Positions 1 to 30,207 of a stretch of 64,000 bases of DNA are shown here, piece after piece (position 1 is the first letter of the stretch; every line of letters begins with the position of its first letter). This stretch comes from a virus. Both the position numbers and the translations under genes were made by a program. The notes under the pieces were generated by a model. It had not been told where the DNA came from and ran no database searches. It saw only the letters and a list, made by a program, of their open reading frames with translations. Location of the stretch: UHGV virus genome UHGV-0294963; one strand, written 5' to 3'.

Positions 1-31
1 CTATCTCCATTCTTTTAGAAATAGAGTATTT
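1..31 (-). CDS. Partial CDS (N-terminal 10 codons only, MDYKYSISKR); possibly QueD-like 6-carboxytetrahydropterin synthase
   Basis: A strong SD (AGGAGGTATAAG) sits 14 nt after the queC stop, followed by ATG (29-31 on the minus strand) and an ORF that runs out of the window. The YxYx(I/L)xKxM pattern resembles QueD N-termini. Very little sequence is visible. Confidence 0.25.
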
Positions 32-41
32 GTAATCCATC

Positions 42-749
42 TTATACCTCCTGATTAATCGCAGGGTCTGCTACACCGTTAGCTTCGAATGCTTTCGCTC
101 TGTCGATGCAGGTACCGCACTTACCACAGGGTCCGGCTTCACCACCATTATAACAGCTCCAGGTATATTCATAAGGAACTCTAAGTTCAAGTCCCTTCTT
201 TACAACTTCAGCCTTGCTAGAACCCGCAAAGGGAGCGACCAGTGAAACTTTGTCATAAGTTCCGATACCGATTGCATCATTCATTGAGTCGATAAATTCC
301 TGAGAGCAGTCTGCGTACGCATTACCAGCCGCGTCATCTGCGTGAGCACCGATATACACGAGCACTTCCTCATCAGGATAGAGAGAAGCTGCCAAAGAAG
401 CTGCTGTCGAAAGGAACAGACCGTTTCTGAACGGAACGTAGGTCGCCACCATACCGTTAGCACTCTTGTCAATCTGGTCAGCATAATCTCCCTCAGGTAC
501 ATCATCAGTAGAGTGCTGAAGCAGCGGACAGTTGCTATGCTTAAAGATAACAGAAAGGTCGAGTTCAATGTGCTTTACGTTGTAATGTTCGGCGACCGTA
601 GCGGCGGCTTCAAGCTCACGCTTGTGCTTCTGACCATAGTACATAGATACAGACGTCACATTAGCAGCACCATGTTCATATACGGCAAGACCTAGACAAG
701 TAGTGCTATCAACACCACCAGAGCTTAATACAATAGCTTTAGGCATCAT
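42..749 (-). CDS. queC: 7-cyano-7-deazaguanine (preQ0) synthase QueC
   Basis: N-terminal PP-loop SGGVDS. C-terminal zinc cluster CxxC...CGKCGTC. About 235 aa, a typical QueC length. Adjacent to queF and queA. Confidence 0.85.
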
Positions 750-1248
750 AAGTCACCTTCCTTTCTGCTGCTGACTGCATAACAGCCAGTCTTCTTGCAG
801 TTTCAAATTCCTTGTACTCAGGATGTTCAGGGTGAACATATGTGGAGAACGGGAAGATTGCGATACCGCCTCTAGGTGCAAAGATACCACGTACCTCAAG
901 GTACTTAGGTTCCATCAGCTTAACAAGGTCTTTCATGATAATATTGACACAATCTTCATGGAAGTCCCCGTGGTTACGGAAGCTGAACAGATAGAGTTTG
1001 AGTGACTTGGACTCGACCATTTTCTCGTTCGGGATATAACTGATGATAATCTTTGCGAGGTCAGGCTGCCCAGTCTTAGGGCAGAGTGACGTGAACTCGT
1101 AAGCATCAAAGGTTACGACATAATCATTGTCCGGATGCTTGTTTACGAATGTTTCGAGTACGCTGGGGTCGTAGTCGTACTTATACTTAGTATTCTGATT
1201 ACCCAGCAGGCTAACGCCCTGAAGCTCTTCAGCATTTCTACCTGTCAT
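739..1248 (-). CDS. queF: NADPH-dependent 7-cyano-7-deazaguanine reductase QueF (type I, YkvM-like)
   Basis: 169 aa. QueF motif E(S/L)K(S/L)(K/Y)(L/Y)(Y/F/W) present as [10 protein letters not shown]. Catalytic Cys in the TSLCP context. T-fold size. Confidence 0.8.
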
Positions 1249-1250
1249 GA

Positions 1251-2486
1251 TTACGCCCCCTCACCTTTGAATTCGCCGTCTTCGAGATAATCCGTCCAAC
1301 TATGTCTCTTGATGAGCATACCATCACCGAAGCTCATGAATCGATACCTCTTATCTACTGCATGCTTATATGCTGTCATGATTTCATCATAACCAGCAAC
1401 AACAGATACAAGCATCATAAGGGTCGTCTCTGGTGCATGGAAGTTGGTGATAAGACCGTCGATACAGTTCACACGGTCAGCTGTTTCAGAACCGGGATAT
1501 ATGAAGATGCTGGTGTCCGTAGAAAAATCTGTAGGATTCTCCCAAACCTCAGGAGGAATAGAAGCGAGGGTGCGGAGTGATGTTGTACCAACCGCTACGA
1601 CATTGCGTCCTTCAGCGTGAGCCTGCTTGATGTCCTTGATTACGTTTACAGGACAGAAGCAATGCTCAGTGTGCATAGCATGATTTCTGAGGTCCTTGAC
1701 AACAACAGGCTTGAAAGTACCAAGACCAACGTCGAGTGTAACCTCCCTCACCTTTACACCCTTGTCCTTGAGTGCTTGAAGTAGTTCAGGAGTGAAGTGA
1801 AGTCCTGCTGTCGGTGCTGCGCAAGAAGTTCTTTCCTTAGCGTAGACAGTATTGTACATTTCAGAAATGTAAGCCTCTGAATGACCTCTACCCTGAATAT
1901 AAGGAGGAAGAGGAGTCTCACCTATCTTGTCGAGAACATCCCAACCGTTAGAATTAGCGAAATCAAGGAATACTTCTCCTTCATCATCGCAGCTCTTGAT
2001 AGTGAGTTCTGCATCGTCAGCACCATTAAGAATAAGAACAGTACCTTCTTCCTGAGGCTTGCTAATCATCGCCTTCCAGGTAGATCCGCCCTGATACTGA
2101 ACAAACAGAATCTCGACAGTATTATCTTCATCCGGCTGTGTACCTTTCTTATAAGCAAACGCTCTTGCTGGAATAACCTTCGTGTTATTGAGAACAAGCA
2201 CGTCACCAGCGTTGAAATAGTCACAGATGTCTGTGAAGTGCTTGTCATCGAGTGCTACAGCTACTCCATTCCTGTCTGCCTCAACGGTTGTGTCAACGAT
2301 AAGACATCTAGCACTCGCCCTATCCGGAAGCGGTTCCTGAGCGATAAGTTCCTGTGGAAGGTCGTAGCGATAATGAGCAGAAGAATACTGCTCCTCAGCA
2401 GGGGCTGTATCAAGTCCCTTTGCTGTTACGGTTTTAGATGTACTAAAAATATCAGGCACACCAGTTTCCATTTTTTCGTTGTTCAT
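1251..2486 (-). CDS. queA: S-adenosylmethionine:tRNA ribosyltransferase-isomerase QueA homolog
   Basis: Motifs collinear with E. coli QueA: [80 protein letters not shown]. Confidence 0.85.
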
Positions 2487-2507
2487 AGTTAATCGTCCTT
2501 TCGTGTA

Positions 2508-3410
2508 TTATGATTCTATGCGTTTTCTTACCTGGGTTGAAATCATATAAGATACGGGAGACAACAGCGCTTCTACTGTAATCTGAAATGCAATGCCGAG
2601 CAAGAAATTGCCAGCTATACTCTTTGCGTCCATACCCCAGCAGTCCATACCTAACGCGGAGCAGAAGCTCGGGATTGAGAATGGAATCATTACCAGGAGT
2701 GTGAACAGACCCAAGTCAGCAGTCTTACCTAAGATACTCGAACCTATTGAGCGGAGCGAGTAGCTTGAAAAACCTTCACCGGGTTTCTTTTTCTTAATGA
2801 AAGCAAATAGCTTATCATTTAAGAAATCACCTACAGCGTAAATCAGGATACCAACGATAGTAACATAGATACCTCCACCGTAGATGAAATCAAATGCGGA
2901 TTCATTCACTTCTGCATACTCAGGCACGGGAATACCGGTAAATGCTTTCGCGATTAGAGCTGCAACGACAGCAAAAATAGCTGAAGTGTTGCCTGATAAT
3001 CTCGAGGCTTTATAACCGAACACTTCTGAGAATACGTCAGAGACGATATATGTTGCGATAAAAAATAGAGAATCGCCTGTTGCAGTTGCCATGACAGTAG
3101 GTCCTGGTATAAACAAGACATCTACAGCGTCAAGTGCGCACAGCACAATTCCCGTCAGACTGAGAAGAGCACCGAAAGCATACCCAACACCTTTGTGCTT
3201 CTTTTCACCAAGCTTGCCTGCTAACAGCATACCAAGAACGGTAAGTATCAGCATACCCAGAATTGAAAAGATACTGGTTTCTTTTGCTTCCAGAATCTTC
3301 ACCATCATCGGTACACACAAAGCATAGCTGGCGACATTGATAGCCATAAGCACAGCAAATAATGCAGGGGCTTTACTCCACGACTCTTCTGGTTTACTTT
3401 TCAGTTTCAT
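2508..3410 (-). CDS. Queuosine-precursor transporter, VUT/YhhQ family (polytopic membrane protein)
   Basis: Multiple hydrophobic helices. The VUT-family signature resembles IVSDVFSEVFGYK. It lies directly upstream of queA in the same operon. The N-terminal start is uncertain. Confidence 0.55.
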   Translation of the reverse strand: MKLKSKPEESWSKAPALFAVLMAINVASYALCVPMMVKILEAKETSIFSILGMLILTVLGMLLAGKLGEKKHKGVGYAFGALLSLTGIVLCALDAVDVLFIPGPTVMATATGDSLFFIATYIVSDVFSEVFGYKASRLSGNTSAIFAVVAALIAKAFTGIPVPEYAEVNESAFDFIYGGGIYVTIVGILIYAVGDFLNDKLFAFIKKKKPGEGFSSYSLRSIGSSILGKTADLGLFTLLVMIPFSIPSFCSALGMDCWGMDAKSIAGNFLLGIAFQITVEALLSPVSYMISTQVRKRIES

Positions 3411-3524
3411 GGTTAATTATTCCTTTCGTATCAATTTTGACTTTAGCAAGGGGATACCTTACTCACTGTTCCCGTTTTATCGAGGGGGAACTCTACTCAC
3501 TGTTTATACACCCATATGAACATC

Positions 3525-3560
3525 ACCACACACGTAGCACGCTAACGCATGCTGTACGTT
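3525..3560 (-). repeat. Inverted copy of the conserved roughly 40-bp element (core ATGCGTTAGCGTGCTACGTG) in the que operon leader
   Basis: Revcomp of 3531-3552 reads ATGCGTTAGCGTGCTACGTGTG. It matches 48089-48108 and 56876-56895. Confidence 0.5.
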
Positions 3561-3640
3561 TATATTTTATATATAATGTTACAACCACACACGATATCAC
3601 AAGCAAAACCACTGCACATAGTACGCAATACGTGTGTGCT

Positions 3641-3685
3641 GTATAACATAATTATATACGATGTAAACCACAATAAACGAAGTTT
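3641..3685 (-). promoter_or_regulatory. Candidate promoter for the que operon (revcomp AACTTCGT, 19 nt, TATATAAT/TGTTATACA)
   Basis: Fits the recurrent AACTTCGT, N16-20, TGnTATAAT architecture found in at least 10 other intergenic regions. Sits in a 440-bp AT-rich gap upstream of the yhhQ-like gene. Confidence 0.45.
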
Positions 3686-3852
3686 ACGTTCTCTTAGCTG
3701 CTCCTGAACCGTCTTTACCTTTCTGGTCGTCTTCGATGAATTTCTTTATCAGCTTTGTTCTGAATAGCACCGGTTGGTCTTCTACATAGTCAGCTGTGTA
3801 TCCCTGACATCTTGCTAGAATACAACGTATCTCAGCATCAACCTGGTCATAC

Positions 3853-8681: not shown

Positions 8682-9743
8682 TCACTGAAAATCTGTGATA
8701 GGTTTGAGCTCCTTATTGAACTCCTTGCTGAGATTGCGTGCGTCCTTGGACACTGCCAGCTTAGACTTTACCAAGATGCAGTCTGCGTCGTCGATTTCAT
8801 CGACAATCTGAATCTTGCCTGCGATGGCGAGCTCATCAACATCAGCTGCATCCACCTTCTTGATGTCCACATAGCACTTCAGAGGCTGCGTAACTGCCGC
8901 TTCCTCGTCTGTGTCATTGATGTCCTCAGTCTCAGCAGTTTCAGCTGCCGATGACTGCTCATCTGCAATCACATCGTCTGCTTCATTTACAATAGGCTGC
9001 TTCGTAGCTTCATCAGACTCACCAGCAACGGGCTGCTCGATTTTCTCCGTCTCAGGCTCAATCGGTGTATCCTGGTCCTCATCAAGCACAAGCTGGTCAC
9101 AGAAACTGCTGGTACACTTATAGAACATAGGAAGGTCAGGATAAATCTGAATACGCTTGAGCGGATTGTTACACTTAGGGCAGAACTGAGGAATCGGAGC
9201 AACAACAGGTGCTGTGTTCATCGGCTGAAGTTCACCATTCCAAACCTTTGCGGTACAGCCAGGCTGAAAGTAAGCAATCAACTTCATGTCAATTACTTCG
9301 AACTCGCCTTTATCTGTAGTGCAGACCAGAGTTAAAGTCTTATCTGGTGCCATCACATACTTTACTGAATTGATGTGTGCCAACTCAGGAACCTTGAACT
9401 CGTTTCCACTTGGAAGACTAATCCAATAAGCATCATACATCGAGTACTGATTCTTGAGGGTAATGAGCTGATTGCCCTGACCACTCTCGTTCTCAAAATA
9501 AGGAACTGTCTTGAAGCCGAGAGAGGTTAGGAGAGCGAGCTGCTCAGTCACGGTAAACTTTCTTGCAGAAGAATACAAGGAATATGCCAGGAAGTCATTC
9601 TTAGACACATATCCCGTAATCTCGAAAGGAAGACTATAATTCTTTATCTGATTCGGTGTGTGTTCAACTGGACTGCCAAGCAGAGCTCCTGTTTCATTGT
9701 AAGACACGGTCGCTTCAGGCAGATTAAGTTTAAGTCTAATCAT
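8682..9743 (-). CDS. Hypothetical protein with CPKC...KCTSSFC zinc ribbon and a roughly 90-aa highly acidic C-terminal tail
   Basis: Its start overlaps the sigma-factor stop by 8 nt, suggesting translational coupling. The tail is rich in D/E (DEDQDTPIEPETE...DEEAAV). Confidence 0.45.
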   Translation of the reverse strand: MIRLKLNLPEATVSYNETGALLGSPVEHTPNQIKNYSLPFEITGYVSKNDFLAYSLYSSARKFTVTEQLALLTSLGFKTVPYFENESGQGNQLITLKNQYSMYDAYWISLPSGNEFKVPELAHINSVKYVMAPDKTLTLVCTTDKGEFEVIDMKLIAYFQPGCTAKVWNGELQPMNTAPVVAPIPQFCPKCNNPLKRIQIYPDLPMFYKCTSSFCDQLVLDEDQDTPIEPETEKIEQPVAGESDEATKQPIVNEADDVIADEQSSAAETAETEDINDTDEEAAVTQPLKCYVDIKKVDAADVDELAIAGKIQIVDEIDDADCILVKSKLAVSKDARNLSKEFNKELKPITDFQ

Positions 9744-10347
9744 CTGATAACACTCCTTTACATTTTCTTAGGTACCATTGTACGCACGGCACCGATAATT
9801 TGGTTAAACCAGATTTATATAAATCAGTAACTTCTTTCGCCGGCATGTGAAGTTCCTTTGCGATTTCATTCACGCTCCATGGCGGTTCATCAGAAGTTCT
9901 GTTTATAACGTGAAGAACATTGATTTCTTTTGGAGTAAGGAGCTTCTCGACCACTTTCGAGATGTCCATCTGTTTCTGGTCGAATTCATATTTATCTTCT
10001 ATCTGTTCTTCCATTGGAATATCAGCGTCCTCGCATTCAAATTCCGAGAACGTCATTTCAGGATTTACCAGCTTATTCATCTGGTTCCTTATATAAGGAA
10101 AAGCATATGTGCTCAAGACTGTATATGTATCAGCGTCGAATCTGTCTATAGCTATCATCAATCCCATAACTCCAGCAGATACGAGCTCTTCGCTGTCGCT
10201 CTCACTCGGAAAGCGACTTGCGAAGTACATCTGATAGCATCTATGCACGAGACCCATATTGTTCAAAACCAACTTGTTTCTTACCTCAGGGTCTCTGGTT
10301 CTAGCATATTCCTTGAGCAATTCCTGATTTTGCTGTCCCCTGCTCAT
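9736..10347 (-). CDS. Phage-encoded RNA polymerase sigma factor (sigma-70 family, SigF/SigG-like)
   Basis: Region 2: LVLNNMGLVHRCYQMY and GVMGLMIAIDRFD with F.TYA..YIRN. Region 4 HTH: LTPKEINVL...WSVNEIAKELHMPAKEVTDLYKSGLTKL. Confidence 0.75.
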   Translation of the reverse strand: MSRGQQNQELLKEYARTRDPEVRNKLVLNNMGLVHRCYQMYFASRFPSESDSEELVSAGVMGLMIAIDRFDADTYTVLSTYAFPYIRNQMNKLVNPEMTFSEFECEDADIPMEEQIEDKYEFDQKQMDISKVVEKLLTPKEINVLHVINRTSDEPPWSVNEIAKELHMPAKEVTDLYKSGLTKLSVPCVQWYLRKCKGVLSDD

Positions 10348-27556: not shown

Positions 27557-28570
27557 TTACAAGCCGATGCGTCGTGCTGACTTAGGAAGACCAACAAATT
27601 CAGTTGTCTCCAGATATCTAACCATACTCGCTGCATTGAACATCTGACGCATCGCAATGCTATTCGTGATATCCTCGACGCTGTCATCGAGCACTTCTTC
27701 TTCTTCAGATGAACGAGTGGGGTCAATCTTTCTGAGTTTTTCAGTAGAGAAACCAGCGTCTTCGATAAGCCTGCATACTTCTTCTTTAGCGTCTGCACCT
27801 AGCCAACAGAAATGGTCAGCAGCGCCGGTAGTTCTTTCACCTACATTCATAGCGGCAAGCTTATTGTGTCTGTGAACGAGAATTGTTCCATAGATTGCAC
27901 CCTTCAACCAGGTTGTAGAGTCAACCGATGTGAAATCAATATACTGAAGAATATTCAGTGCGGTCATACCAAATCCATGTGTCTTTACATCCGGATTAGA
28001 TGATTTTTTGATACGACGAAATGCTTCTTTGCAGAACACAAGCCTGCGGTCAGTAGTTGTTTCCGTATGAGGTGATATACCGATGTAACGGAGAGGATTA
28101 CCGTTAGCATCACGATACTCTAGCATATTCTCCAACCATTTGAAATCTTCACCCTCATGAAAGACAGGAATAAACCTATCCCAAAGACTCTTGTCAAGAC
28201 GCTCACGCATATGCAAGAAGTTCTCCCAAGAAATTCTTGGAGCATCAAGATAAACCTGTCTATCCTGTACGACGTTAGACTTACCAGGAATGTAGTCAAC
28301 CTGAACCATTACATCGAAATATCTACCGTACTCGTTAAGATAAGCGATGTAGTCGTCAAGGTCAATTTCTTTTCCCTTGGTGTAAGCCGAGAACGCACCT
28401 GAGTCAACGAACAGTTTCATACCTGGATGCTCATCTTTATAACTCATCCAACGCTTAATACGCGAACGGTCATTCAACTGCGAAAACAGTCGATTATAGC
28501 CAGCTTTAACCAGATACTCATCAACTGCTTGCGGTGCGCTACCAGCAAAATATAACTGCGTTTTTAGCAA
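27557..28570 (-). CDS. dpdA: DpdA-like DNA-guanine transglycosylase (TGT superfamily, 7-deazaguanine DNA insertion)
   Basis: KLFVDSGAFSAY matches the catalytic-Asp motif of TGT/DpdA (DSGGF). TIM-barrel size (337 aa). Lacks the tRNA-TGT CxCxxC...H zinc site. TTG start coupled to the upstream gene. Confidence 0.55.
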   Translation of the reverse strand: MLKTQLYFAGSAPQAVDEYLVKAGYNRLFSQLNDRSRIKRWMSYKDEHPGMKLFVDSGAFSAYTKGKEIDLDDYIAYLNEYGRYFDVMVQVDYIPGKSNVVQDRQVYLDAPRISWENFLHMRERLDKSLWDRFIPVFHEGEDFKWLENMLEYRDANGNPLRYIGISPHTETTTDRRLVFCKEAFRRIKKSSNPDVKTHGFGMTALNILQYIDFTSVDSTTWLKGAIYGTILVHRHNKLAAMNVGERTTGAADHFCWLGADAKEEVCRLIEDAGFSTEKLRKIDPTRSSEEEEVLDDSVEDITNSIAMRQMFNAASMVRYLETTEFVGLPKSARRIGL

Positions 28571-30144
28571 GTGACAACCCTTCTTTCTAATGATTTAATA
28601 TATTCCTCAGCCTTTTCTTTCATCTTATCTAGGAATCGAGAAGAAGGACGAAGATACTTTTTCTTTGCGGTAAGCTTGTCTTTTGTAAGGTAGCTTACCC
28701 TATCCCAATGCTTATGGACTACATTGTATAAATAGGAGAACAGTCGATTGTAGCGTTTGATAGCTTTCTCCTGATACTTCCATTCTGCATCGTCATTAAG
28801 AGCTGCCCGTCGTTGTTCAGGTTTCATCTTAAGCCATCGGTCAGACATATACTTACCTTCGGCTACTCCGATGTACCGAACCTCACCTGTAATGACATTA
28901 ACTGAAAATCGACAGTCATCATATGTAAATGACGCAATCGATTTATCTGTATCTCGAAAACCCATCGTAATGAGGTCCTTCACATTCGACTGAACATAAC
29001 GGACAGCGTCTATAAATGTTAGCGAGTTAGGATTAAGCTTCTTCCACCTGTCGACGTAATAAGGTACATGCTGAGTCATGTGCTTCTCGTAACGATTTCC
29101 TTCTCGCTTGATTTTCCTCCAATCACCGTTAACCATATGCAAAGCAGCTTGATGACCACTCATGGAGCCAACGATAACCTGATGAACCAGGTCATAGAAA
29201 TCTTCTCGCTTTTCATGAGAAAGAATTCGAGGAGCGAACACGGGTTCGTGTGCTTTCAGAAGAGGATTCCAACTGAATCTGCATAGTTGAGGCTCGATAG
29301 ATTTAAGCTGCTCAACAACAATCTGCTCCCACTTTTCAACGCGAGCATTCATACCCTTAAATGCCGGTATTCTACAATTCTCGGTGAACATCTGAACTTG
29401 ATTGCTAACAGAATGAAAGAAATAATTGTATAAGCACGAGTTTACGTCTTCCCGATAATCATTCTCGATTTCTCTTGAACAATCGAATTCTGTATGCTCC
29501 CACTTAACGTTCTTACCAAGACGTTCTTTTTTCTTGTCTTTGGCTTCAACTACCCAACCTTTCTTATTAACTATCAATTTAGGCTTGATTACCGTTTCAA
29601 TGAAACGCTGATGGTCATCACCCAAACATTCTAGAACAGCTGACCAGCTATACTTCGCTACATCTGCAAGCGTACAGACTCCCTGTGCGTAGCGTACTCT
29701 CGCATCCCAGGTTGATAAGAACATAACTGAGGTGTTTATACAGTTTCCGTCCTCGTCATACCAACGATTACGTCTATTCTTGTATGTAACACCTGCATAC
29801 TCAGCTTTTGCAGGAATATATCTATGAAGCCAGCTCTCAATCCCGTGAAGACAATTAAGAGCGAACTCATATGGAATTATACCTTTCTTGACTAACTTCT
29901 GCTGAACATTAGAACTTAAATCGAATGCTGCAAGTTTACCGTCCTGGTATAAGGCAGCTTGAACACCTTCTGGGGGATTGTTGATTATATCTGTCACTCG
30001 AGATTCTATATCAAAATTATCCGGTAAGCTCACTACCTTCATATTCTTATAATATAGAATCCTATTCCCTTTGTAGAGACGACTCAAGAACCAACCCTCA
30101 GGAAGACGTTTCTCGAAAGAAGTTCTAGGTAGAACTTTCTGGCA
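28564..30144 (-). CDS. Hypothetical basic protein (about 527 aa), translationally coupled to dpdA
   Basis: SD AAGAGGGT before ATG (MCQKV...). Its stop overlaps the dpdA start by 7 nt. First gene of the minus-strand block. Rich in Trp, Lys and Arg. No family I can recognise. Confidence 0.45.
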   Translation of the reverse strand, partial: CQKVLPRTSFEKRLPEGWFLSRLYKGNRILYYKNMKVVSLPDNFDIESRVTDIINNPPEGVQAALYQDGKLAAFDLSSNVQQKLVKKGIIPYEFALNCLHGIESWLHRYIPAKAEYAGVTYKNRRNRWYDEDGNCINTSVMFLSTWDARVRYAQGVCTLADVAKYSWSAVLECLGDDHQRFIETVIKPKLIVNKKGWVVEAKDKKKERLGKNVKWEHTEFDCSREIENDYREDVNSCLYNYFFHSVSNQVQMFTENCRIPAFKGMNARVEKWEQIVVEQLKSIEPQLCRFSWNPLLKAHEPVFAPRILSHEKREDFYDLVHQVIVGSMSGHQAALHMVNGDWRKIKREGNRYEKHMTQHVPYYVDRWKKLNPNSLTFIDAVRYVQSNVKDLITMGFRDTDKSIASFTYDDCRFSVNVITGEVRYIGVAEGKYMSDRWLKMKPEQRRAALNDDAEWKYQEKAIKRYNRLFSYLYNVVHKHWDRVSYLTKDKLTAKKKYLRPSSRFLDKMKEKAEEYIKSLERRVVTC

Positions 30145-30207
30145 CATTATCGATAGACCCTCTTTCTTGACCACGTGCTAACGACACGTTTTTGAACTCA
30201 CATATAA

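Follow-up and report, generated by a model that had tools for sequence, protein, structure and literature searches.

To our knowledge, phage DNA can carry eight different 7-deazaguanine derivatives, each with no more than a small side chain, and tRNA is the only known substrate of QueA. In Streptococcus phage Dp-1, the DNA contains dPreQ1 (PMC6884629 Table 2). Decoration of this base has a precedent in enzymes that add a methyl or a formyl group to the dPreQ1 amine in DNA, described in the DpdM and DpdN systems of Cellulophaga phage phiSM and Flavobacterium phage immuto_2-6A, and for every 7-deazaguanine DNA modification described to date, insertion by DpdA after replication is the proposed route (PMC10516641). 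A phage survey of 2019 reported no viral QueA, QueG or QueH and no dQ in phage DNA (PMC6884629), its 2023 follow-up makes no mention of QueA (PMC10516641), and a search of the literature brought up no report of deoxyqueuosine in phage DNA.

The locus considered here is located at the edge of the window, i.e., the 64,000-nucleotide stretch of UHGV virus genome UHGV-0294963 that was analysed. The full gene set of the phage for preQ1 in DNA, together with a diverged QueA of its own, suggests a new and bulkier DNA base, deoxy-epoxyqueuosine.

The preQ1 gene run and its genome

Positions 2..3410, read on the minus strand, carry yhhQ, queA, queF, queC and the beginning of queD (13 codons), with a non-coding stretch upstream:

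2..40, minus strand: start of queD (6-carboxytetrahydropterin synthase), first 13 codons, running past the window edge, after which come queE and folE
42..749, minus strand: queC, 7-cyano-7-deazaguanine (preQ0) synthase (PF06508, E=2.7e-55; TIGR00364, 162 bits vs. cutoff 150)
739..1248, minus strand: queF, unimodular NADPH-dependent preQ0 reductase, preQ0 to preQ1 (TIGR03139, 163 bits vs. cutoff 86.9; PF14489, E=1.2e-31)
1251..2486, minus strand: queA homolog of a phage-only clade, 411 aa (PF02547, E=8e-105; NF001140, 366 bits vs. 324; TIGR00113, 337 bits vs. 267)
2508..3410, minus strand: VUT/YhhQ (COG1738) family membrane protein, first gene of the operon (PF02592, 68.9 bits vs. cutoff 27.2)
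3411..3852, minus strand: non-coding stretch upstream of yhhQ without a credible ORF, presumed operon promoter region

The initial annotation had recognized queC, queF, queA and a VUT/YhhQ gene. Four minus-strand ORFs are indeed present at these coordinates, and the profile-HMM check with PF02547, PF14489 and PF06508 upheld the family calls at the E values listed, which lie well outside what chance would give; the three QueA motifs quoted there are all present in the translation. A queD start had also been suspected at the window edge, with queE and folE just outside. It is real, as the translation of 40..2 (MDYKYSISKRMEI) is identical to the N-terminus of QueD at L001:10710-11105 on the full contig, where queD, queE and folE directly follow queC in a tightly packed run of seven genes. 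The locus would then be the promoter-proximal half of a seven-gene operon, yhhQ-queA-queF-queC-queD-queE-folE. Regarding the co-transcription proposed earlier, the spacing within yhhQ-queA-queF-queC (gaps of 21 nt and 2 nt, then an overlap of 11 nt) fits it. Neither a promoter-like site, in 3411..3852 included, nor a terminator signal could be detected above background. No preQ1 riboswitch was found upstream of yhhQ, and the window has no Rfam match.

The preQ0/preQ1 pathway is complete, the functions being assigned by membership in the respective families. QueC, QueD (TIGR03367, 89.6 bits vs. cutoff 89.25), QueF and FolE (NF006826, 245 bits vs. cutoff 162) score above equivalog or subfamily cutoffs, while the best model for QueE, the Clostridial-type TIGR03963, gives 224 bits, below its cutoff of 260. 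The QueF translation shows the QueF motif (ESKSLKLYL) as well as the catalytic Cys. The YhhQ protein, which has an additional N-terminal region of ~110 aa and reaches 36.9 bits against TIGR00697, below the NCBIfam equivalog cutoff of 50.95, is predicted to import preQ0 or preQ1.

The sequences are all metagenomic. The rest of the genome was walked via IMG/VR contig 3300045988_079501 and one metagenome contig until the circle closed, and all ORFs of at least 100 aa in this composite genome were scanned with Pfam. That the DNA comes from a phage, as first assumed, is borne out by a genome of ~150 kb (~150.6 kb) whose portal, Gp23 capsid, gp13 and gp25 genes are T4-like; it is that of a human-gut myovirus, with a probable host among the Firmicutes. 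The phage is common in the human gut and uncultured. No close cultured relative with an annotated genome was found, the best capsid match being 28-30% and the best PolA match 36-37%. That queA might be host DNA from the edge of a prophage, or an artefact of misassembly, was rejected: the gene lies deep inside the ~150.6-kb genome, and ENA, Logan and JGI samples each yielded this genome independently with the same neighbours of queA. IMG/VR contigs with QueA form two groups, namely this phage family and others in which QueA is found ~4 kb or less from the contig end, the latter being likely host DNA.

DpdA and its association with QueA

The transglycosylase and its neighbour are encoded elsewhere in the window, 25 kb from the queA operon:

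27557..28570, minus strand: dpdA, DpdA1-type DNA guanine transglycosylase, in the replication module (phrog_887, E=1e-47)
28564..30174, minus strand: conserved 536-aa ORF directly upstream of dpdA with a 7-nt overlap (no Pfam, PHROG or NCBIfam match)

The reading of 27557..28570 as a DNA transglycosylase holds, the assignment to the DpdA type being made because of the PHROG match, the homology to Dp-1 and the fold. With Gp7 of Dp-1 the protein shares 39% identity along its entire length (E=2e-73), and it matches 189 phage records, including 9g-like phages, Quinobequin-P09 and phiSM. Its AF2 model (pLDDT 88.9) finds bacterial TGT and arcTGT as best Foldseek matches (probability 1.0, TM ~0.55), and the aspartates D56 and D217 are invariant; direct sequence searches of PDB, Pfam and NCBIfam gave no match. 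Since an ORF of ~500-600 aa precedes dpdA at the homologous position in every lineage seen, the 536-aa protein may, from this synteny, be a partner of DpdA.

Three gene arrangements can be distinguished, and the two for which enough sequence was seen each contain DpdA, QueA and YhhQ. In the first, that of the window, queA belongs to the seven-gene run and dpdA is distant. The second has DpdA-QueF-QueC-QueD-QueE-FolE-x-YhhQ, and its 41-kb contig carries QueA at another place. In the third, DpdA-QueA-YhhQ are directly adjacent, with no synthesis genes within the 21 kb seen; the QueA homolog adjoining dpdA there (L031:11159-12346) scores 385 bits, above the curated family cutoffs. In two of the three arrangements queA is not beside dpdA, and a Vut_1 gene accompanies DpdA in the other lineages. 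An HD-domain gene beside QueA in the second lineage was considered as a pathway partner and is probably incidental, its homolog in the window lineage being located in the accessory arm, far from queA. In the composite genome, the Pfam scan revealed no tRNA-type TGT (PF01702) and no QueG or QueH family match; the sole TGT-fold protein is the DpdA1-like one. The tRNA complement of this genome is limited to Leu(tag) and Pro(tgg), with none for Asp, Asn, His or Tyr. Co-occurrence, adjacency in one lineage, the lack of a TGT and the sequence changes proper to the clade (see below) strengthen the link between QueA and DpdA.

The best explanation appears to be that a DpdA1-type enzyme, as the homology to Dp-1 suggests, would swap guanine in the phage DNA for preQ1, and that QueA would use SAM to place a ribosyl-derived epoxy-dihydroxycyclopentyl group on the aminomethyl nitrogen of the DNA-borne dPreQ1, giving 2'-deoxy-epoxyqueuosine with release of adenine and methionine. 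We infer the QueA step on DNA from QueA chemistry together with the genomic association, and put its probability at roughly 0.5. DpdA and a full preQ1 gene set with strong scores and nearly contiguous genes speak for it, as does the order QueF-QueC-QueD-QueE-FolE plus DpdA, which matches Dp-1. Further points in its favour are the separateness of the phage QueA clade and its own sequence features, the strong purifying selection on queA and the precedent of methyl and formyl groups on the dPreQ1 amine. Because no QueG or QueH is encoded, the modification would probably stop at the epoxide unless a host enzyme acts. The further elaborated DNA base envisaged at the outset is partly supported in this way, and the boost of queuosine in host tRNA, named there as the alternative, keeps some probability.

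The likely benefit would be a bulkier adduct in the major groove, evading restriction enzymes as well as defence glycosylases that recognize simpler 7-deazaguanines; such glycosylases do tell 7-deazaguanine side chains apart (bioRxiv 10.1101/2025.10.29.685425). It can tentatively be proposed that the phage QueA has switched polymer, which would make it the first DNA-acting enzyme of its family, producing a new natural DNA base that would be widespread in a common human-gut phage family and would probably help to evade defences aimed at simpler 7-deazaguanines.

The QueA clade and its possible substrates

The phage QueA aligns over the full length of PDB 1YY3 (E=1.7e-74), the alignments to 1YY3 and 1VKY beginning at residue 37-39. 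What precedes is a 36-aa N-terminal extension with a conserved motif, D12-I-F-S15...D26..P29, which was found in 26/26 phage QueA sequences and in essentially none of 136 bacterial representatives. The extension is acidic and predicted to be disordered (pLDDT <50 for residues 1-23), without DNA-binding character. The motif was also considered as a shared clamp- or SSB-docking peptide, which is unsupported: neither the polymerase, DpdA, SSB and clamp nor other ORFs bear a like terminal motif. In a comparison with 1.84 billion representative proteins, scores of 867, 348 and 335 bits within the phage clade are followed by values of at most 270, which sets the clade apart from bacterial QueA, and no phage-type QueA was found in genomes of bacterial species.

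Within the shared region, the phage enzyme carries G220T, H252D and L351A at positions where 96% (G), 88% (H) and 92% (L) of the 136 bacterial representatives agree, these residues being replaced in 96-100% of phage sequences, together with K/R262V at a position mostly basic in bacteria. At 220, 252, 262 and 351, G, H, K and L are retained in the nearest bacterial QueAs, which are 45-47% identical and come from Lachnospiraceae and Clostridiales. N212 and A57 are inherited and not phage-specific, because these nearest bacterial QueAs have both (Q212N is seen in Lachnospiraceae QueAs). As far as the sequence tells, QueA is not strongly remodelled, since it scores above the NCBI equivalog cutoffs for the tRNA enzyme and retains 62 columns with a conservation of 90% or more among the bacterial representatives.

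The main rival substrate is host tRNA. Host TGT would insert preQ1, made or imported by the phage, into the tRNAs for Asp, Asn, His and Tyr, and QueA would convert it to epoxyqueuosine-tRNA, so that NAC/NAU decoding is kept or tuned during infection or a limited host QueA is complemented. This is the only experimentally known activity of the family, in keeping with intact core motifs and scores above the equivalog cutoffs; host TGT could serve even though the phage has none, and a distant relative (L051, a 12-kb contig) encodes a tRNA-Asp(GUC). A deficiency of the host in QueA is conceivable, some bacteria lacking the enzyme and salvaging queuine instead (PMC5699537). However, the composite genome encodes neither a TGT nor a tRNA of the Q family, and the host probably has its own QueA because the nearest bacterial QueAs come from the likely host group, Lachnospiraceae/Clostridiales. 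Action on tRNA would also leave unexplained the phage-specific replacements at near-invariant positions, the conserved N-terminal motif and the dpdA-queA-yhhQ adjacency. We regard it as a serious rival, though less likely than action on DNA.

Some observations weigh against action of QueA on DNA. The known substrate of the enzyme is tRNA, and in two of the three arrangements queA stands apart from dpdA. Duplex DNA would demand access to the base, and QueA evolved to get its base from an anticodon loop. The scores above the tRNA-enzyme cutoffs and the character of the N-terminal extension point in the same direction, as do the tRNA gene of L051 and the finding that dQ was detected in none of the phage DNAs analysed so far (PMC6884629).

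With regard to the genes directly 3' of folE, namely an HGPRT-like phosphoribosyltransferase, a DUF4406 protein and NrdD/NrdG, it can be asked whether QueA acts before insertion, on free preQ1 as the base or, via the phosphoribosyltransferase, as a nucleotide, DpdA then inserting the larger base, or whether a modified dNTP is made via NrdD/NrdG. Eukaryotic TGT does insert queuine, a phosphoribosyltransferase is also found near DpdA/QueA in other lineages, and the substitutions close to the QueA active site could reflect a small-molecule substrate. Yet QueA requires preQ1 already in a polynucleotide, and the match of the phosphoribosyltransferase is weak (E=3e-10, far below cutoff), salvage of the guanine released by DpdA explaining its presence equally well. 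The post-replicative route proposed for the known modifications (PMC10516641) also argues against this scheme, which we hold to be improbable.

The phage queA has a dN/dS of 0.04-0.09 at dS ~1-2 and is under strong purifying selection, so that it cannot be a passenger. A function outside 7-deazaguanine metabolism could otherwise consist in lowering the SAM pool so as to blunt SAM-dependent host defences: QueA cleaves SAM to adenine and methionine, and phage SAM-degrading enzymes are known anti-restriction tools. But its turnover needs a preQ1 acceptor, and its consistent association with DpdA, YhhQ and the preQ1 genes speaks for a place in that pathway, which makes such a role very hard to credit. 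QueA is firmly embedded in a DpdA/preQ1 system, has a sequence signature of its own, and has been kept by selection throughout a gut phage family that is both diverse and abundant.

Comparison with known systems

If QueA does modify dPreQ1 in DNA, the product would be a new and much bulkier hypermodified base, and SAM would serve in a new way, as a ribosyl donor whose ribose carbons go to DNA; this would also add a new layer to the struggle between the modification of phage DNA and the defences that sense it. Were tRNA the substrate instead, the phage would complete a hypermodification of host tRNA, which is rarely seen.

The Dp-1 module, QueF-QueC-QueD-QueE-FolE-QueT-DpdA, has the same order of biosynthetic genes as here, with ~73% nucleotide identity in queC/queF, full-length similarity of DpdA (39% identity), a PolA 36-37% identical, and preQ1 as the same predicted inserted base. 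However, Dp-1 is without QueA and has a QueT-type rather than a YhhQ-type transporter; its dpdA is inside the operon, whereas here queA is in the operon and dpdA is 25 kb off in the replication module. Dp-1 is a 56-kb siphovirus and the present phage a ~150-kb myovirus with T4-like structural genes.

Bacterial QueA, the tRNA preQ1(34) S-adenosylmethionine ribosyltransferase-isomerase (1YY3, 1VKY), presumably shares its chemistry with the phage enzyme, but the latter is encoded without tgt, is linked to dpdA instead, and differs by the 36-aa DIFS extension and by G220T, H252D, L351A and K/R262V. The dpdA-queA-yhhQ arrangement recalls the bacterial pairing of queA with tgt in that a transglycosylase gene adjoins queA, although the transglycosylase is of the DNA-specific DpdA1 type and not a TGT, and the phage is without QueG and QueH. 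As for DpdM (preQ1 methyltransferase) and DpdN (formyltransferase), the logic is alike, DpdA inserting a 7-deazaguanine and a further enzyme decorating its aminomethyl nitrogen (PMC10516641). Those enzymes belong to families unrelated to QueA, and the group predicted to be added here, a five-carbon epoxy-diol ring from the ribose of SAM, would be far larger than a methyl or formyl.

The queuosine-pathway operon and its continuation

Five minus-strand genes with near-zero gaps between them occupy positions 2..3410, where the initial annotation had placed queC, queF, queA and a YhhQ-like gene, with a probable queD start at the edge:

3410..2508, minus strand, yhhQ: Vut_1 membrane protein (PF02592, 68.9 bits against a cutoff of 27.2)
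2486..1251, minus strand, queA: NF001140, 366 bits against 324; TIGR00113, 337 bits against 267
1248..739, minus strand, queF, unimodular: TIGR03139, 163 bits against a cutoff of 86.9
749..42, minus strand, queC: PF06508, E=2.7e-55; TIGR00364 over cutoff
40..2, minus strand, queD: first 13 codons, from translation at the window edge

Judged by profile searches, the family assignments of queC, queF and queA are unambiguous, and YhhQ passes the Pfam threshold but scores below the stricter TIGR00697 cutoff; the earlier reading is thus borne out by both coordinates and scores. The guess that queE and folE follow outside the window was also correct, since the same QueC sequence occurs in several human-gut samples, on metagenome contigs of ~150.6 kb where queD, queE and folE come directly past the window edge. 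The next genes on these contigs, immediately after folE, encode a phosphoribosyltransferase, a DUF4406 protein and NrdD/NrdG. On the full contig continuing past window position 1 these genes lie on the operon strand (L001:12552-16668), the phosphoribosyltransferase (320 aa) being weakly HGPRT-like. Phosphoribosyltransferases also occur near DpdA/QueA in other lineages (L031:16316-17344, from the DpdA-QueA-YhhQ lineage, and the starts of L011 and L013). The enzyme may recycle the guanine released by DpdA or synthesize a 7-deazaguanine nucleotide. Its proximity hints that QueA might modify a free base or nucleotide prior to insertion, but salvage of released guanine accounts for the gene equally well, and such an order of events seems improbable.

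DpdA, genome content and probable host

Further genes of the window are:

27557..28570, dpdA: ORF with a phrog_887 match (E=1e-47)
28564..30174, minus strand, 536-aa ORF overlapping the dpdA start by 7 nt
9736..10347, minus strand, small sigma-70 region 2 protein, also in L011, L013, L074 and L075

The dpdA product has no sequence match in Pfam, NCBIfam or PDB; it aligns over its full length with Gp7 of Streptococcus phage Dp-1 (39% identity, E=2e-73), and DpdA genes from many further phages are also among its matches. Its AF2 model is of high confidence (pLDDT 88.9) and finds its best structural matches among bacterial and archaeal tRNA-guanine transglycosylases, and two aspartates (D56 and D217) do not vary within the family. 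The Dp-1 module has the same QueF-QueC-QueD-QueE-FolE order as that of the window phage and ends in DpdA, and dPreQ1 has been shown in Dp-1 DNA (PMC6884629). From this precedent, the common module order and the likeness of the two DpdA proteins, we infer on good grounds that preQ1 is inserted into the DNA of this phage as well. The 536-aa ORF has no Pfam, PHROG or NCBIfam match; all lineages seen (L030, L031, L071, L073) have an ORF of ~500-600 aa upstream of dpdA, which may encode a DpdA partner.

The window and its flanks encode a DNA polymerase of family A, a primase, the helicases DnaB and Dda, a clamp with clamp loaders, SSB, RecU and SbcCD, along with T4-like structural proteins, namely a portal, a Gp23 capsid and the baseplate proteins gp13 and gp25. 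Cultured relatives are remote, with 28-30% capsid identity to Bacillus, Listeria and Streptococcus myoviruses and 36-37% PolA identity to Dp-1, MS1 and Clostridium phages. The best match of QueE is a Clostridial-type model, and the host is likely a member of the Firmicutes. The sigma-70 region 2 protein (~190-203 aa), found near tail-fibre-like genes in all lineages, is probably a late sigma factor.

Since a role of QueA on host preQ1-tRNA would gain from a phage-encoded tRNA-type transglycosylase (TGT) or Q-family tRNAs, the other half of the genome was pieced together from an IMG/VR contig (90% identical) and a metagenome contig, which closed the circle, and all ORFs of the composite of at least 100 aa were then Pfam-scanned. 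No TGT, QueG or QueH was found among these ORFs, and the only tRNAs of the composite are Leu(tag) and Pro(tgg) (L045:17530-18000, on the nearest relative). Both results speak against the host-tRNA explanation, as does the presence of QueA in the probable host group. In its favor, tRNA is, to our knowledge, the sole known substrate of QueA, and the phage enzyme is not extensively remodelled; it is the main rival, less probable than action on DNA but to be taken seriously.

The tRNA sets differ among relatives: a distant 12-kb relative (L051:10342-11868) has six, among them Asp(gtc) and one with a CUA anticodon that ARAGORN calls Pyl and that may be an amber suppressor. Genes for anti-Thoeris proteins (Tad2-like and Tad3) lie in the accessory arm of the nearest relative (IMGVR_UViG_3300045988_079501, ~94-123 kb), together with those for a MazF/PemK-like toxin, a NADAR domain protein and, at L055:17829-18503, an HD-domain protein. 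At L063:13135-13896 lies an orphan 253-aa radical SAM protein with a CSLGCNHC motif, unrelated to either QueE or NrdG of that genome and without a subfamily assignment.

Distribution and clade-specific features of phage QueA

Among 5.8 billion protein clusters searched, more than 100 QueA clusters were 80-99% identical and came from contigs 135-166 kb long, followed by a second tier at 47-54% identity. In second-tier phages, which are related, queA has another location, after SbcCD and a DUF3310 gene, and one such 41-kb contig carries QueA plus a separate cluster DpdA-QueF-QueC-QueD-QueE-FolE-x-YhhQ. The third arrangement, DpdA-QueA-YhhQ, is found on a 66-kb contig and on one of 110 kb, ENA ERZ11466826 NODE_72 with 110,556 bp, with no preQ1 synthesis genes within the 21 kb seen. 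The remaining IMG/VR matches all lie within ~4 kb of contig ends, as host DNA bordering a prophage typically does.

On one second-tier contig, the gene directly upstream of queA encodes a 184-aa SAM methyltransferase of class I (L075:1461-2015). Downstream, a conserved ORF of ~250 aa either adjoins queA or comes after a short 119-aa ORF (L013:11172-11924, L075:3205-3960, L074:3432-4172), and it has no homolog in the lineage of the window. In one second-tier phage, FolE is 423 aa long and carries an HNH domain in addition to GTP cyclohydrolase I (L030:6024-7295), the HNH part being probably a homing-endonuclease or intein-type insertion.

When 1.84 billion representatives were searched exhaustively, the phage clade stood well apart from every bacterial QueA. 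Phage QueA aligns end to end with solved QueA structures from residue 37-39 onward, preceded in all phage sequences by an extra N-terminal segment with invariant D12, F14, S15, D26 and P29 (motif DIFS), which is essentially absent from bacterial representatives. When 26 phage sequences were compared with 136 bacterial representatives, 62 near-invariant columns were retained; the phage enzymes have T at position 220 (G in 96% of bacteria), D at 252 (H in 88%), A at 351 (L in 92%) and V at 262 (mostly basic in bacteria). The closest bacterial QueAs, from Lachnospiraceae and Clostridiales MAGs (45-47% identity), have N212 and A57 in common with the phage clade, retain G220, H252, K262 and L351 and lack DIFS. 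They likely represent the donors of the phage gene, in which case T220, D252, V262, A351 and DIFS likely arose within the phage lineage. Residues 1-36 form an acidic, predicted-disordered peptide, with no counterpart among the other proteins of this phage; in the AF2 model (pLDDT 72.5), residues 1-23 are predicted to be disordered. Within the close clade, dN/dS is 0.04-0.09, with dS saturated, which indicates a functional gene. A role of QueA unrelated to 7-deazaguanine, such as SAM depletion, appears very unlikely.

Predicted role of QueA and relation to known systems

The evidence links QueA with the DpdA system rather than with tRNA: the two co-occur in lineages with enough sequence seen, queA is directly adjacent to dpdA in one lineage and inside the preQ1 operon in another, TGT is absent, the probable host group already has QueA, and the sequence signature is clade-specific. 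DpdA would put preQ1 into phage DNA, and QueA would then use SAM to convert DNA-borne dPreQ1 to 2'-deoxy-epoxyqueuosine, at which the pathway would end, as no epoxyqueuosine reductase is encoded. There is precedent in other phage enzymes that add a methyl or formyl group to this dPreQ1 amine in DNA (PMC10516641), and defence glycosylases tell 7-deazaguanine side chains apart (bioRxiv 10.1101/2025.10.29.685425), which would give a selective reason for elaborating the base. Given the linkage to DpdA, this precedent and the glycosylase pressure, SAM-dependent formation of 2'-deoxy-epoxyqueuosine in DNA is considered the most likely mechanism, with a probability of roughly one half.

A 2019 survey reported that QueA, QueG and QueH are encoded by no virus and that deoxyqueuosine was not found (PMC6884629), and its 2023 follow-up does not mention QueA (PMC10516641). 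Full-text literature searches turned up no paper on QueA in phages or on deoxyqueuosine in their DNA, and public-database entries of these proteins bear only an automatic QueA label. QueA would be an addition to the known DpdA/7-deazaguanine system, one that predicts a new DNA base.
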